Notes under the pieces: generated by a model
Databases searched by the model: none
What the model was told of the DNA's origin: nothing
The model's input: the letters and a program-made list of their open reading frames with translations, nothing else
Assembly: GCA_016179955.1 (NCBI GenBank)
Contig: JACPCD010000006.1
Coordinates: 1 to 47,259, forward strand
Source of the DNA: Candidatus Woesearchaeota archaeon
GTDB taxonomy: Archaea > Nanobdellota > Nanobdellia > Woesearchaeales > GW2011-AR9
DNA: 47,259 nucleotides
Reading direction: 5' to 3'
Part shown: piece by piece, positions 2,112-45,371 of the stretch
Position numbering within the stretch: position 1 is the stretch's first letter
Layout of the letters: each line of letters opens with the position of its first letter
Translations under genes and position numbers: made by a program

Positions 2112-2259
2112 GTGGGCGTGCCAGAGTGGTCAAATGGGATGGGCTTAGGGTGTAATGAGCCTGAATTGGCGATGAACAGAAGACACCCATTGGGTTAGTC
2201 CCTACGCAGGTAATCTGGAAAATAATTTTTAGGTCTGCAATCGAATCCTGCCGCCCACA
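2112..2259 (+). tRNA. tRNA-Leu (anticodon TAG) with two introns (2150-2184 at 37/38; 2212-2240 inside the T-loop)
   Basis: The 7-bp acceptor GTGGGCG pairs with CGCCCAC, followed by A73. The D-arm is CCA/TGG with loop GAGTGGTCAAA. The anticodon stem is ATGGG/CCCAT with loop CT-TAG-G[intron]A, and the long variable arm is TGGGTTAGTCCCTAC. The T-stem GCAGG/CCTGC and loop TTCGAAT are reconstituted only after removing 29 nt. TATA-like GATATAAAA lies about 27 nt upstream. Confidence 0.75.
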
Positions 2260-4375: not shown

Positions 4376-6709
4376 TTAAAACGTATACGCTATCTTTTCC
4401 ACTTTTCCCCCACAATACTTAACAATCCATTGGCTCGCTAATTTCATCGCTTCCTGCAACTCTTCATTAGACGTTACTTGTGTACCATCAACGTAGAGAA
4501 TAAGCTCTTTTGTTTTCTCGGAGATTTTGGTAAGTTCGGAATCCCGGTAATTTAAATCTTGACAGAAAATTAATTCTCTTGCATCCGCATATACTAATTC
4601 CCCCGCTTTCAATGCCTTAGGTTTATCTTCCAGCAAAGGTGTAAATGTCTCTCCGGCCTGAGCGAAACGTAAATAAGTCGGAAATGTCAAACTAGGCAGA
4701 TTAAATGCACCCATGGACACTCGTGTTTTCATAACTGCTAAATTATACACATCCACAACTGTGTTTACGGTGTACAACTCTTTCCCCTCTTTTACTCTCT
4801 TCAACAAAGCTAAAGGACTAGGCTTCTGTTTGGTTGGATCTACTCCCGTTGCTTTGTAGATACGCTTATATTCTTCCAGTAGTGGTATATCTTCTAATTT
4901 TGTGTTTTTAAATTCTTCAATTAATTTCCCAACTACTTCTTTCTTGAACTGTTGAAGTTTTGGGATTTCCTTTCGAACGGTTACTCCTTTGATAATAGCA
5001 ATACCTACCTTAAGACCAGGAAATTTCTGGAGAACATCATCTTGAATTTCTAATATGCCTTTAATCGGCTGGTAATGAGAAACAGCACTGATCTTCTTTT
5101 GCGGGGTAGTGCTTGAATATTTTTCCTCGGTATGATTCGCATCTTTCAACAACTTTGCTACTTTCTCTTTCCCAATCGCCAGGATGAACGAGGCTAATCT
5201 GGGTCCTTTTTCCTGGTTGATCAGCACCCGGTAGCATAGCTTGAAAAAATCTCCCGTTGGAAAATCATTATTCTTGCAGAGAATGTACATCTCTTCATGC
5301 AGTTCCACGTCGGTCCATTTTCTTTCCACTAACTTATCAGCCAGCAAATGTAGAATTTTCTTTTCTTCTTTTCTGACAGTAACCATGCATTTTTCCTGAA
5401 CGGTGAAGGTGAACTCTTCCGGCGCATGGTGCTGCAGCCAGTTCTTAGCGCAGAGTGCCCGTACTTTCAACCGCCGCCGGTCATGCTCATTTTTGAGCTC
5501 GTGCTTAAAGTAGGCAATAGTCTTATCCACCTCCAAGCTATGGGTCTGCAGCAGGGTCGTCAAATGCCTGAATCCGGGCTGGTAGGGGATAGTTTTGGGT
5601 ATCTTTCCAATGTAACTCAATTCATAGGCTGCTTTCTGCTTGATGCTCTCTTTCTCGTTAACGTTCTCAACCCCATAATAAATGCGCTCACACTTGTCAA
5701 AGTCTTCATAGATCTTCAGCACATCGGCGTCAAAACTGATGGCAAATTCTTTATTCGGTCGGGTACCTGCAAACAGGTATCGGACCACTTCCGGCTCATA
5801 TACTTCTAAGACATCGGCCAAGGATAAGACTTCGCCGCTGGAACTGGACATCTTCCCTTTTCCCCCTTTGACGTTAATGAAATCATACATCACATAGGTA
5901 GGGGCATCAAAATCCCATATTTTTTTGACAATCTGCTTTCCGGTATCAAAGCTTCCGCCTACTGTTGAGTGGTCTTTGCCGCCAGGCTCAAAGTCTACTT
6001 TTTCATAGGCCCAGCGCATCGGCCAGTCAATGCGCCATTTCAATTTCACGATGGTTTTTTTGCGGAAATCAATCTCTTCCTGCTGCCCGCACTCGCATTT
6101 GTAATTGATGGTATATCCTTTGCTCCATTGTAAGTGGGTGATAGTATTTTTGCCGCACTGCGCACAGAATACCGAGATGGGCAGCCACCCCTGATGAAGC
6201 GGCTCTTCCCGGAACTGGTTTAATATCTCTTTGATTGTTTCCGTCTGCTCCAGCGCTTTCTTGATTTCAGAGGCATATTCCCCCGAGTTATATTTTTCCT
6301 GCTGATATAAGAATTCAGGAGTGATGCCAACTGTTGGCACGCTTTCTTCCACTGCCTTTTGGTTATGCTCTGCATAATTGGCATGGCAGCCAAAGGTGTC
6401 GGGAACACTGGTGATGGCTTTCCGTAGATATTTCTGCAACTCTTCCGGTTTGGGCATGTTTTTAGGAACTTTCCGGAAGACGTCATAATTGTCCCAGGAA
6501 TAGATGAATCTTACTTTTTTACCTCTCTTTTCCAAGGCCCGTTTAACTAAGTCCACGGTTATGATCTCCCGGAAATTGCCGATATGAACAACGCCGCTGG
6601 GGGTGATGCCTGCTGCGACGGTATACTTTTTCTTATCTCCTTTTTCGCGGAGGATGTTTTCTGCCGCTACATCAGTCCAATGGTATAAAAGCTCTTTTTC
6701 ATCTGCCAT
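4376..6709 (-). CDS. lysK: class I lysyl-tRNA synthetase fused to a C-terminal B3/4 (PheRS-beta-like, COG3382) domain
   Basis: HIGN (VVHIGNFRE) and KMSSSSG (KMSKS-type) motifs and class I LysRS architecture run to about residue 545. The C-terminal ~230 aa carry B3/4 signatures (YKATGVDPTKQKPSPLALLKRVKEGKELYTVNTVVDVYNLAVMKTRVSMGAFNL). The likely start is the ATG at 6709 (MADEKELLYHW). Confidence 0.9.
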   Translation of the reverse strand: MADEKELLYHWTDVAAENILREKGDKKKYTVAAGITPSGVVHIGNFREIITVDLVKRALEKRGKKVRFIYSWDNYDVFRKVPKNMPKPEELQKYLRKAITSVPDTFGCHANYAEHNQKAVEESVPTVGITPEFLYQQEKYNSGEYASEIKKALEQTETIKEILNQFREEPLHQGWLPISVFCAQCGKNTITHLQWSKGYTINYKCECGQQEEIDFRKKTIVKLKWRIDWPMRWAYEKVDFEPGGKDHSTVGGSFDTGKQIVKKIWDFDAPTYVMYDFINVKGGKGKMSSSSGEVLSLADVLEVYEPEVVRYLFAGTRPNKEFAISFDADVLKIYEDFDKCERIYYGVENVNEKESIKQKAAYELSYIGKIPKTIPYQPGFRHLTTLLQTHSLEVDKTIAYFKHELKNEHDRRRLKVRALCAKNWLQHHAPEEFTFTVQEKCMVTVRKEEKKILHLLADKLVERKWTDVELHEEMYILCKNNDFPTGDFFKLCYRVLINQEKGPRLASFILAIGKEKVAKLLKDANHTEEKYSSTTPQKKISAVSHYQPIKGILEIQDDVLQKFPGLKVGIAIIKGVTVRKEIPKLQQFKKEVVGKLIEEFKNTKLEDIPLLEEYKRIYKATGVDPTKQKPSPLALLKRVKEGKELYTVNTVVDVYNLAVMKTRVSMGAFNLPSLTFPTYLRFAQAGETFTPLLEDKPKALKAGELVYADARELIFCQDLNYRDSELTKISEKTKELILYVDGTQVTSNEELQEAMKLASQWIVKYCGGKVEKIAYTF

Positions 6710-6800
6710 ACTGCCCGATGAACGGAACGAATTATATAAACGTTTCCTCAACAACTTTTATAAACCAAAAAGATAATCTTAACATAAAAGAGGTTTGAGC

Positions 6801-38457: not shown

Positions 38458-38550
38458 GCACTTTCAGAGAGCTGTACGCTATATAAAGATTGTGGTGGTA
38501 TATAGTGACCACAAAGATTAATCAATATCGGTTGTTTGGTAAAGGCTACT

Positions 38551-39219
38551 ATGACCGAAACACTTAATGCTTTACAATATCTGGTTGATGAGAATCCTAT
38601 TCTTCAACACCCCTTGCTGGTCTCTTTTGCTGATTTACGCAAAAGTCAGGTAAAATCGTGGGCGAGGGAGCAATACTACTTGTCACTTTCATTTGCAGAT
38701 ACACTGGCCATACTTTTTGCCAGAGTTCCCTTTACATACGTTGCCGAAAAAAGACAGTTGGCAGATATGTTTTATACAGAAGTGAGAGGTGGGAATGATC
38801 TTTACTCTCATGAAGCTGAGTTTGCAGCAATGGCCTCATTTTTAGAACTTAATCTGGAGCAGCTGCAACAAGAAAGGCCTAAAACACATACTCAACAATT
38901 TATCGATGACCGGTTAGCTCTATGCTCGCAAAAACCAATTGCACAGAGTTTGGCGGCGATGGCGCTGGGAAATGAGTATCTTAATCTTTCTATTTTTAAA
39001 TCCTATCGTGATGGAATTCCTAAAATATCTGGCTTGGCGAGTTGCCCCTTGGGATATTTTGATGCCCATCTGCGCGATGAATATGATGATTTTAAAATCA
39101 TGGATGCTGCCTTTCAAAAAGTAAGTAGTGGCCTTGATAATGGCGTAGAGCGAGCGGTGAGAAAATTATTAGAAATTAGAACCCACTATTTTGATGCTCT
39201 TTGGGAAGATTTGAAATAA
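38551..39219 (+). CDS. heme-oxygenase-like fold protein (TenA/PqqC-like iron-containing redox enzyme family)
   Basis: All-helical, ~220 aa, with the patterns HPLL..., WAREQYYLS and H/E/D positions typical of this fold. Weak call. Confidence 0.5.
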   Translation: MTETLNALQYLVDENPILQHPLLVSFADLRKSQVKSWAREQYYLSLSFADTLAILFARVPFTYVAEKRQLADMFYTEVRGGNDLYSHEAEFAAMASFLELNLEQLQQERPKTHTQQFIDDRLALCSQKPIAQSLAAMALGNEYLNLSIFKSYRDGIPKISGLASCPLGYFDAHLRDEYDDFKIMDAAFQKVSSGLDNGVERAVRKLLEIRTHYFDALWEDLK

Positions 39220-39402
39220 GAGTAGGAGGCATATTTATTTCTGATACGTCTCAGCAATAATTCTCAGCATATATTGCTGGTCTCGTTGAAGTGTTTCAAC
39301 GAATTGATTAATAACGCCCTCTTTAATCTTTTTAAACTTTTATGAAATACCACTCCAAAATACTCACATAACTTTATTTAACTGCCGGCCATTTATACGG
39401 TT

Positions 39403-39771
39403 ATGGCAGCTGCTCCCGCTCTTCCCCAGGGTTTTGAACCTGCAAAGCTCTACGTCTGGGTGAAAAGCCTGGAAAGCAAAGTTAACGTGCTGTTGCGGGA
39501 AGTGGATGTGCTCAAGAATGATTTCGTGAAGCGCAACCAGGATTTACGCCAGGACGTCAGGGTCTTGTCTGAGGATCTTCTCGAGGTGAAGCATCAGCAC
39601 GAAAAGATGCTGCAGACGATGGACTTGGTCATTAAGGAACTCAAGCAGACCGCTGGCGTTGAAGAGGTGCAGGTGCTCAAGAAGTACGTGGAGTTTTGGA
39701 ATCCAATGCAGTTTGTAACCCAGCAGGACTTAGATCGAGCACTGGAAAGCAAGCCCATGGGAAAGAATTAA
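39403..39771 (+). CDS. coiled-coil protein, unknown
   Basis: Heptad-rich 122-aa ORF, first of a tandem pair. Confidence 0.5.
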   Translation: MAAAPALPQGFEPAKLYVWVKSLESKVNVLLREVDVLKNDFVKRNQDLRQDVRVLSEDLLEVKHQHEKMLQTMDLVIKELKQTAGVEEVQVLKKYVEFWNPMQFVTQQDLDRALESKPMGKN

Positions 39772-39807
39772 AAAGAACCTCTTTCATACTACCAAAAAAG
39801 GTGATTG

Positions 39808-40356
39808 ATGATGGTATTACCGGCACAAAATCTCGTTTCCGAAGTACTGGCGTTGCGCAGCCAGGGGCTTACTGATAATCTTATCATGGAAGAATTGAAA
39901 AGCCAGGGCTATACTCCGCCGCAAGTCAGCCTGGCCATTGCCCAGGCAGATTCTCCGTCCCCGTCATTTCAGGATGCTGCTCAATATGCTGGGTCCGCTT
40001 CCGGATACTCTTCCTCTGGCGCTGCTGATGAAGGCAACATCTATGAGCGTCTCGAAGAATTCACGGAGAATATGATTGACCAGAAATGGGATGAGCTGAT
40101 TGCGGAAGTGAAGAAAATCGTTTCCTGGAAGGAGAAGATGGAAAGCCAGCAGCAGCAGTTGCAGAATGATGTAACTAAGCTCAAAGAGGATTTTCGGGTT
40201 CTGCATCAGGGCGTTCTGGGCCAGCTGGAGGAATATGACACCCGCATGCGGGACGTGGGCACGGAGCTTAAGGCAGTAGGAAAAGTCTTCAAGGATGTGA
40301 TTCCGGAATTCGTGCAGAACGTGAAGGAATTGAAAGGGCTGACGCTGAAGAAGTGA
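39808..40356 (+). CDS. coiled-coil protein with small N-terminal helical (UBA-like) module, unknown
   Basis: GGTGA SD at 39800-39804. N-terminal LRSQGLTDNLIMEELKSQGYTPPQVSLAIAQA, an S/A/G linker, then coiled coil. Confidence 0.5.
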   Translation: MMVLPAQNLVSEVLALRSQGLTDNLIMEELKSQGYTPPQVSLAIAQADSPSPSFQDAAQYAGSASGYSSSGAADEGNIYERLEEFTENMIDQKWDELIAEVKKIVSWKEKMESQQQQLQNDVTKLKEDFRVLHQGVLGQLEEYDTRMRDVGTELKAVGKVFKDVIPEFVQNVKELKGLTLKK

Positions 40357-45202: not shown

Positions 45203-45371
45203 GCCACGGTGGCACAATCTGGTACTGCGCAGGATTGCTAGGTGCGCTGATGCGAACCACGATGAACATCAGTTCCGCGCAGAGATCCTGTCCCTCTGGG
45301 ATTCCCAGTTCAAATAGGGGCGGTTAAGGCAGTACGCCTTGAACGTCCGTGAGAAAGTCTGGGCCGTGGCG
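45203..45371 (+). tRNA. tRNA-Ser (anticodon GCT) with two introns (45241-45284 at 37/38; 45316-45358 at the T-loop/T-stem junction)
   Basis: The acceptor GCCACGG pairs with CCGTGGC, followed by G73. The D-arm is GCA/TGC with loop AATCTGGTA. The anticodon stem is CAGGA/TCCTG with loop TT-GCT-A[intron]A, and the variable arm is TCCCTCTGGGATT. The T-arm is CCCAG-TTCAAAT-[43 nt]-CTGGG. TATA TTTATAAA at 45171-45178 and a T9 run after the gene. Confidence 0.7.

Follow-up and report, generated by a model that had tools for sequence, protein, structure and literature searches.

A tRNA-Leu(UAG) gene with two BHB introns, one of them in the T-loop, in a Woesearchaeota archaeon

Positions 2112-2259 on the forward strand of the window, by which we mean the whole 47,259-nucleotide stretch of DNA analyzed, hold the parts of a single tRNA-Leu(UAG) gene separated by two inserted segments. 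The locus raises the question whether a working tRNA is made from it by removal of both segments, or whether it is the remains of a gene. The DNA stems from a metagenome-assembled genome of a Woesearchaeota (DPANN) archaeon with a small genome. The assembly contains 953,950 bases in 42 contigs with 44% G+C, is estimated to be 81% complete, and includes the window as contig C27.

Anatomy and detection of the gene

Exon 1 (2112-2149, plus strand as for all features of the gene; 38 nt) contains the 5' strand of the acceptor stem, the D-arm, the 5' strand of the anticodon stem and the anticodon loop through G37, with the anticodon TAG at 2146-2148, as seen in the ARAGORN cloverleaf of the spliced product. 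Where aligned whole, it was 87-100% identical among orthologues. Intron 1 (2150-2184; 35 nt) follows G37 and occupies the canonical position 37/38. Exon 2 (2185-2211; 27 nt) was placed by the ARAGORN cloverleaf and the spliced alignment, and comprises A38, the 3' strand of the anticodon stem, the long variable arm, the 5' strand of the T-stem (GCAGG, 2206-2210) and T54 (2211). Intron 2 (2212-2240; 29 nt) lies at position 54/55, between T54 and T55 of the TTCGAAT T-loop. Exon 3 (2241-2259; 19 nt), defined by sequence, ARAGORN and spliced alignment, carries T55-T60 (TCGAAT), the 3' strand of the T-stem (CCTGC), the 3' strand of the acceptor stem (CGCCCAC) and the discriminator A73; CCA is not encoded at its 3' end. 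The gene reads GTGGGCGTGCCAGAGTGGTCAAATGGGATGGGCTTAGG, 35 nt of intron 1, ACCCATTGGGTTAGTCCCTACGCAGGT, 29 nt of intron 2 and TCGAATCCTGCCGCCCACA.

Joined in silico, the three exons form an 84-mer that ARAGORN called tRNA-Leu(tag). Its acceptor stem has 7 bp and its long variable arm a 3-bp stem and a 5-nt loop; the T-loop is TTCGAAT, and A73 is the last nucleotide. The Leu anticodon, long variable arm and A73 identify the 84-mer as a class II tRNA-Leu. ARAGORN runs on spliced and partly spliced sequence showed that the gene, the anticodon and the coordinates of both introns had been given exactly in the original prediction, and the 84-mer matches the mature size of about 84 nt proposed there. 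The same prediction had listed A73, G37 and the long variable arm as Leu identity features. A73 and the variable arm are indeed archaeal Leu identity elements and were present; G37 was present as well but is a common feature of CUN-reading Leu tRNAs, not an identity element.

The gene had been expected to be overlooked by default gene finders, and this was the case. ARAGORN found no tRNA at the locus in the raw DNA of the window, and Rfam found none at gathering scores and none even at E<=10 within 1900-2500. When intron 2 alone was removed, ARAGORN found the gene with a 35-nt anticodon-loop intron, while removal of intron 1 alone gave no ARAGORN call at the locus. We scanned both strands of the whole genome for bulge-helix-bulge (BHB) introns of 12-130 nt, defined by a 4-bp central helix (H) flanked by 3-nt bulges, in which each strand is cut 2 nt 3' of H; each candidate was cut out and the remainder given to ARAGORN with the anticodon-intron option. 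Without use of the predicted coordinates the scan recovered a tRNA-Leu(tag) at C27:2112, with the intron 2212-2240 plus i(39,35). A control scan of the reversed genome gave 8 loci only, all of low GC and with over-long mature products (87-96 nt). Because the control gave these 8 loci, and a relaxed BHB census yields false positives, only candidates with a GC content of at least 0.55 and a normal mature length were counted.

Upstream of the gene, a purine-rich BRE-like AGAAAG (2072-2077) and a TATA-like ATATAAAAAA (2078-2087), whose end lies about 25 nt from the 5' end of the tRNA, were read from the sequence. The combined block AGAAAGATATAAAAAA (2072-2087) is probably an archaeal promoter, judged by the archaeal promoter consensus, and a AGAAAGATATAAAAA block was found at equal distance upstream of most orthologues. 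Downstream, the T-rich stretch TTTTATT (2271-2277) is a likely transcription terminator; T-runs followed nearly all orthologues. No second copy of the exons and no uninterrupted Leu(UAG) gene was found in the 81% complete assembly, so that the intact copy elsewhere which had been named as a sign of a pseudogene did not turn up in this sequence. The codon CUA accounted for 626 of 134,856 codons in 261 long ORFs (4.6 per 1000). If the CUN box is otherwise served by GAG and CAG anticodons, wobble rules demand a UAG anticodon for CUA.

Structure of the two introns

BHB motifs had been suggested as a check on the introns, and they fold at the junctions of both (H 3/4 for intron 1 and H 4/4 for intron 2). 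In the orthologues, every class of intron fits this geometry as well. In intron 1, the central helix consists of C32-U33-U34 paired with A2180-A2181-G2182, plus an A35.G2179 mismatch. The anticodon stem acts as outer helix (6 bp), GG^G and AC^A form the bulges, and UGU (2151-2153) pairs with ACA (2176-2178) in an inner helix of 3 bp. Intron 1 is therefore of a near-strict hBHBh' form, with outer and inner helices of 6 and 3 bp and an A.G mismatch in H. Most orthologues share the A35 mismatch. When the anticodon arm with intron 1 was folded by itself, RNAfold favored a GGGUGU:ACACCC helix (-13.0 kcal/mol) over the BHB fold (-9.4 kcal/mol).

Most of intron 1 is taken up by a conserved module (2151-2178), with the layout UGUAAUGA - GCC(loop)GGC - GAUGA - ACA. 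Its parts are a stem closed by GC, the 3-nt bulge GAU and two GA dinucleotides that face each other (GGC-GAU-GA against GA-GCC), and the module would resemble a K-turn or box D'/C' motif. The pattern was matched in 15 of 25 orthologous 37/38 introns, the window included, and a GUGA variant was seen in two of the 10 that missed it (L098 and the mis-split L083). The stem covaries, its third pair being C:G, U:A or A:U. A search of Rfam with gathering scores and E<=10 gave no match to the module. Genes for L7Ae and fibrillarin are present in the genome. A conserved GGUGU in front of the D-like AUGA could pair with the 3' junction AC|ACC, to which it is complementary, and C39 would then be the fifth nucleotide from the box. 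The introns of Leu(CAA) are out of this guide register, and positions 38-40 are invariant among orthologues, which leaves no room for covariation in the guide pairing.

Intron 2 is built differently. Its central helix is complete, the exon sequence GCAG (G49-C-A-G52, 2206-2209) being paired with CUGC of the intron (2235-2238). The 5' bulge is G2210-U2211^A2212, the 3' site is A2239-A2240^U2241, and the inner helix has 9 bp (2213-2221 with 2226-2234) closed by the loop 2222-2225. An outer helix was looked for by geometry scoring and by folding, and had 0 bp; because it is absent, intron 2 is of the relaxed HBh' form. The H-bulge-h' structure was the minimum-free-energy fold in RNAfold, both locally (2206-2242, z = -3.3) and in the full 148-nt precursor.

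Introns of this type form a small family. The pattern GCAGGTAA..CTGCAATCRAA was found in 6 of 114 family genomes, with 0 matches for the backwards control, and the six introns are distributed with two each in Leu(UAG), Leu(CAA) and Leu(CAG), all sharing the GCAGG T-stem. Their RNAalifold consensus, ((((...((((((((..(....))))))))))))), has 4 covarying pairs and is the same structure as that of intron 2. The confinement of the 54/55 intron to Leu genes fits the need of CUGC for the T-stem GCAG as its partner. Empty 54/55 sites were seen in many orthologues, and the distribution of the family resembles the intron transposition described for Thermoproteales (PMC4033280, PMC4090602).

Conservation among relatives and the tRNA set

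Matches to the locus were found in 98 of 101 genomes of the same family, many of them stopping exactly at 2211 (query position 112). Using blastn-short and a purpose-built spliced aligner, we aligned 29 loci. The UAG-type orthologues, from 27 related genomes, carry 0-3 introns each, at seven or more positions. L101 and L109 are intron-free, while L082, L087, L092, L097, L098 and L104 have three introns. Site 37/38 contains 20-54 nt of inserted sequence or is empty (L099, L101, L109, L110). Introns were further located at 53/54 (L083), at 54/55 (the window and L082, and the Leu(CAA)/Leu(CAG) genes L091, L105 and L106), at 59/60 (many loci), in the D-loop (L091, L092, L098, L105), at 30/31 (L087, L104) and in the variable loop (L082, L097).

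All aligned loci splice in silico to exactly 84 nt, and 25 of the 27 UAG-type loci were directly called Leu(tag) by ARAGORN. L087 and L104 appeared as Ser(aga) under automatic boundaries, another intron breaking the outer helix of their 37/38 intron; with the 37/38 boundary set by hand, the sequence reads as that of Leu(UAG). Removal of the introns yields a standard cloverleaf that is conserved in relatives, as judged by ARAGORN and by the 27-sequence alignment. In this alignment the cloverleaf positions were paired in 100% of 575 cells, and 9 pairs were changed on both sides, among them acceptor pairs that link exon 1 to exon 3. In 500 shuffles, the pairing and covariation values of the cloverleaf were never reached, and slid controls paired in 31-51% of cells. 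In the nearest relative (G020) exons 1 and 3 and intron 1 are identical to those of the window, and exon 2 has one substitution. Its intron 2 has two substitutions, both strengthening pairs of the inner helix, and a third intron of 48 nt is present in the variable loop. Altogether, these observations show that selection acts on the spliced cloverleaf and on the intron helices.

Interrupted tRNA genes are the rule in this genome. In the 954-kb assembly, default ARAGORN found 3 tRNA genes, ARAGORN with introns 11, and Rfam 12 above cut-off. About 20 further credible genes came from the BHB-aware scan; most of them combine a T-loop intron at 59/60 with a 37/38 intron, and they include Asn, Thr, Ala, His, Tyr, Cys, Arg, Gly, Ser, Phe (53/54) and Leu(CAG). 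The census covered genes with at most one non-anticodon intron to be removed, so that genes with three or more introns are not counted in these figures. Only about 3 tRNA genes of the genome are uninterrupted. The window itself contains a second two-intron gene, tRNA-Ser(GCT), at 45203-45371. In 40 family genomes that were at least 93% complete, Rfam found 3-31 tRNAs with a median of 11.

A class I LysRS gene neighbors the locus (4376-6754, minus strand). Its product was 50-74% identical to matches on contigs mostly labeled Woesearchaeota, Nanoarchaeota or Nanoarchaeia; many matching contigs were labeled 'uncultured Methanosarcinales', and one was labeled as an Omnitrophota bacterium.

Multiple-intron tRNA genes were reportedly described for Thermoproteales (Pyrobaculum, Thermofilum, Caldivirga) by Sugahara in 2007/2008. 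In that order tRNA genes have non-canonical BHB introns, with up to three introns per gene and more than half of the genes affected (PMC4033280). The intron positions listed include 20/21, 30/31, 45/46, 53/54, 56/57 and 59/60, with 54/55 absent from the list (PMC4090602). The Woesearchaeota family is similar with respect to BHB introns at canonical and non-canonical sites (D-arm, 30/31, variable region, 53/54, 59/60), up to three introns per gene, more than half of the genes affected, and similar introns in different isoacceptors, which suggests transposition. It differs in that the host belongs to DPANN and has one alpha-type EndA without the Crenarchaea-specific loop, not an (alpha-beta)2 enzyme. 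Such tRNAs had been called a hallmark of a few archaeal lineages; the lineage found here is Woesearchaeota, not one of the classic Thermoproteales.

Splicing enzymes and interpretation of the locus

The genome has a single EndA gene (G000:C2, E 7.7e-30) encoding both the N-terminal and the C-terminal domain (PF02778 and PF01974); read from Met22 of a 235-aa frame, the protein has 214 aa. Exactly one strong PF01974 match was found in each of 61 family genomes, and these genomes contained no second EndA-like gene at E<=1 apart from scattered weak matches. The Tyr-His-Lys triad is intact, with FRVYDRG..DHAKW and STKK conserved in 13 of 13 family EndAs, and the core is colinear with the alpha4 enzyme of M. 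jannaschii (1a79). By sequence, the enzyme appears to be alpha4-like and single-unit, which is the answer to the suggestion that the endA type of the genome be checked; the single gene copy suggests that it may form a homotetramer.

Broad substrate specificity has been ascribed to inserts, namely a CSL of about 10 aa, an ASL, and 5-6 aa between the catalytic Tyr and His (PMC5829648, PMC3488258). The Tyr-His insert is a loop with K241/K244 in ARMAN-2 (PMC3488258) and was renamed L3 later (PMC5829648). By the published paradigm, an alpha4-type EndA without inserts cuts strict motifs only (PMC5829648). An alignment comparison revealed none of the three inserts (L1/CSL, L2/ASL, L3) in the EndA of this genome. 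Relative to it, S. tokodaii EndA has 10 extra residues (CSL, L1), N. equitans EndA is longer by 6 residues between the catalytic Tyr and His (L3), and ARMAN-2 EndA has extra residues at both the ASL and the Tyr-His site. In all 13 family EndAs the Tyr-His spacing is 10, as in M. jannaschii, within the motif FRVYDRG[VI]KPG[EQ]DHA[KR]W. At the place corresponding to the ASL, all 13 also carry GKVEL with its Lys invariant, and their N-terminal tails are rich in K/E and variable. A broad-specificity endonuclease had been deduced from the introns; it is implied by need, not by features of the EndA, which is single-unit, alpha4-like and devoid of the L1 and L3 inserts. The ligase gene rtcB is present as well (C23, E 2e-167). 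The rtcB gene is itself interrupted by a 30-nt BHB insert.

An alpha4-type EndA has been described in several DPANN lineages, with one Woesearchaeota genome among them, and was linked to more tRNA disruption (Kaneta 2018, PMC5829648). The same study, which also covered a Pacearchaeota genome, noted that prediction of full tRNA sets was not possible and that some disrupted genes are still to be identified, and concluded that the subunit type contributes least to substrate recognition. The present family agrees with it in superphylum and in the presence of an alpha4-type EndA alongside many disrupted tRNA genes, but the L3 insert reported there for diverse DPANN EndAs is missing from the 13 family EndAs, which have no Tyr-His insert (PMC5829648). 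Multi-intron archaeal tRNAs, DPANN included, were thus already known; Kaneta 2018 gives no gene-level description of this tRNA-Leu, its orthologues or the 54/55 intron family, and our literature search found no gene-level account of multi-intron tRNAs for Woesearchaeota. In ARMAN-2 (Micrarchaeum), a T-loop intron of pre-tRNA-Cys is cut by a three-unit epsilon2 EndA in which Lys161 of the ASL is needed for relaxed motifs (PMC3488258). Intron 2 is comparable in that it, too, is a relaxed BHB intron that interrupts the T-loop in a tRNA from DPANN. Here, in contrast to ARMAN-2, the EndA has one unit, and its ASL-equivalent loop is 2-3 residues shorter in the HMMER alignment, yet has the invariant Lys.

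Based on the anatomy, the BHB geometry, the conservation, the covariation and the enzyme genes, we consider 2112-2259 to be a functional two-intron tRNA-Leu(UAG) gene, with a probability of about 0.9. We infer that it serves as a single-copy gene whose product is transcribed, cleaved, ligated and provided with CCA. Transcription from its own BRE/TATA promoter would give a precursor of about 150 nt with two BHB introns. The single EndA would cut each intron 2 nt 3' of the 4-bp central helix on each strand. Intron 1 would use the anticodon stem as outer helix, and intron 2, with its 9-bp inner hairpin, would borrow the T-stem 5' strand GCAG for pairing with its own CUGC. RtcB would then join the three exons into the 84-nt class II tRNA, the T-stem would re-form after ligation, and CCA would be added.

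Some observations speak against the two-intron reading. Intron 2 is without an outer helix and the central helix of intron 1 has an A.G mismatch, and the sole EndA is alpha4-like and lacks L1/L3, a type that by the published paradigm cuts strict motifs only (PMC5829648). RNAfold prefers a competing helix in the isolated intron-1 arm, and an uninterrupted copy could lie on DNA missing from the 81% complete assembly. The incompleteness, the silence of the gene finders at the locus and the uninterrupted genes of some relatives (L101, L109) would all be expected of a decaying tRNA pseudogene with two insertions that is no longer processed into a working tRNA. We regard this as very improbable, since the exons retain 100% of their pairing capacity and are almost the same as in the orthologues, the inserts have BHB geometry with compensatory changes in the nearest relative, and promoter and terminator are conserved. 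Moreover, the gene is the sole CUA decoder in the assembly, and nearly all tRNA genes of the genome are built alike. Even less credit is due to the idea that the interruption is an assembly or binning artefact, produced by a chimeric contig or wrongly joined reads. The metagenome-assembled genome is fragmented into 42 contigs, but independent assemblies from many studies have the same exons with inserts at the same sites, G020 carries a near-identical copy, and the 54/55 intron family occurs in five other genomes.

A more substantial doubt concerns the enzyme. The gene may be real while the alpha4-like EndA alone does not remove intron 2, so that a helper or an alternative precursor fold is involved; we consider this unlikely, if less so than the pseudogene. 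Help might come from a structural subunit that escaped detection, from L7Ae or a different RNA-binding protein, or from the basic tail at the N-terminus of EndA, and an alternative fold would supply intron 2 with the full hBHBh' motif. Such assistance would account for the 0 bp of outer helix and for an EndA without L1/L3 whose Tyr-to-His spacing is that of the strict M. jannaschii enzyme, given that the literature ties relaxed-motif cleavage to inserts (PMC5829648, PMC3488258). The variable K/E-rich tail and the invariant GKVEL Lys of 13/13 family EndAs are in line with it. However, the search of the 61 family genomes at E<=1 gave only scattered weak matches as candidates for a second EndA-like gene, relaxed motifs are so common in the family that one enzyme must handle them routinely, and subunit type is the feature said to contribute least to recognition (Kaneta 2018, PMC5829648).

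The reading of the locus as a functional two-intron gene leaves a misfit with the published rule, in that relaxed motifs occur alongside an EndA without any known insert. One tentative proposal, which we would rate as distinctly short of an even chance, joins a loop-less one-gene EndA with a new broad-specificity route to the module of intron 1 as a cis-acting guide. Woesearchaeales would accordingly maintain a tRNA set in which nearly every gene is interrupted, many by relaxed HBh'/hBH introns, with an insert-less EndA. The broad range might come from the invariant Lys of the short GKVEL loop or from the basic N-terminal tail. The module may be a single-K-turn half box-C/D guide, in which GGUGU pairs with the 3' splice junction, and may place C39 at the methylation position before splicing, by analogy with the tRNA-Trp intron of Haloferax. 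In Haloferax volcanii and other Euryarchaeota, the intron of pre-tRNA-Trp reportedly contains a box C/D guide (Clouet d'Orval 2001); of the two nucleotides targeted in tRNA-Trp, one is nucleotide 39. Both introns would have a K-turn-type module at 37/38 with nucleotide 39 at the guide position (C39 in tRNA-Leu), whereas intron 1 is only 35 nt long and has one K-turn-like module, without the full C, D', C', D set.

For the family, the findings have consequences beyond this gene. Because Rfam and ARAGORN find few tRNA genes (3/11/12 in this assembly and a median of 11 in 40 genomes), tRNA counts of these DPANN genomes and claims of missing decoding capacity are artefacts unless BHB-aware searches are used. 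One orthologous gene with 0-3 introns at seven or more positions and with clean empty sites is a natural data set for the gain, loss and movement of BHB introns, and the occurrence of one intron family in three Leu isoacceptors that share a T-arm is informative on intron movement. Finally, a loop-less single-unit EndA facing relaxed motifs offers a direct test case for the rule that insert loops confer broad specificity.

A conserved module and a variably present intron in tRNA-Leu(UAG)

The first intron of tRNA-Leu(UAG) carries a conserved module, GGUGU-[A/G/U]A[U/A]GA-GC(stem-loop)GC-nAUGA (window 2151-2178, + strand), that was traced by pattern matching in the orthologous 37/38 introns of loci L082-L104. 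The pattern was found in 15 of the 25 introns, including that of the window, while two more carried GUGA variants, and the third pair of the stem showed covariation. By sequence the module looks like a K-turn or half box C/D motif. Its GGUGU is complementary to AC|ACC at the 3' junction, and in this pairing C39 would be the fifth nucleotide from the D-like box. The genes for L7Ae and fibrillarin were both found in the genome.

The orthologues from the nearest relative (L082, genome G020) and from locus L097 have an intron in the variable loop with an inner helix of 8-11 bp. This intron, 48 nt long in the nearest relative, is absent from the window gene; very closely related genomes have therefore diverged by intron gain or loss.

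tRNA-Ser(GCT) is the second two-intron tRNA of the window (45203-45371, + strand). It has a 44-nt intron at position 37/38 and a 43-nt T-loop intron at position 59/60 (45315-45357, + strand) with three of four pairs in the central helix and an outer helix of 5 bp. ARAGORN detected the gene only once the T-loop intron was removed.

The splicing endonuclease and an insert in the ligase gene

The gene for the splicing endonuclease EndA (contig C2, L111:1336-2043, - strand) was compared with those of family loci L112-L123. In the EndA of this family, the N-terminal tail is variable, rich in Lys and Glu and about 30-90 residues long; it precedes a highly conserved core of 165 residues. The Lys in GKVEL is invariant in L111-L123 and lies at the position of the specificity loop in the EndA of ARMAN-2.

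The gene for the RtcB ligase (contig C23, about 38,525-40,042, + strand, corresponding to L130:1333-2850) is split by a 30-nt insert with bulge-helix-bulge (BHB) geometry (L130 1567-1596, + strand). The insert contains an in-frame TAA and lies between the codons for PDGH and WGYGFPIGG. The central helix is GGUC:GACC (4/4), with an inner helix of 6 bp and with AU^U and AG^U as the bulges. The flanking motifs were located in 28 loci, counting that of this assembly; four of these carry an insert of 30-32 nt and 24 are empty at the same spot. The four inserts differ in sequence and share the position. A literature search found no paper on a BHB insert splitting the RtcB ligase gene.

Interrupted tRNA genes in the assembly and the family

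Default ARAGORN found only three tRNA genes in the whole assembly. A BHB-aware scan, which covered genes with a single non-anticodon intron, added about 20 genes with such an intron, located on contigs such as C5, C20, C26, C28, C32, C34, C37, C39, C40, and C42. Most of these introns were at position 59/60, and most of the genes also had a 37/38 intron. tRNA-Phe(GAA) on C37 has a 24-nt intron at position 53/54. In 40 family genomes, each at least 93% complete, the Rfam tRNA model found only 3-31 tRNAs per genome (median 11), and interrupted tRNA genes are therefore hidden family-wide.
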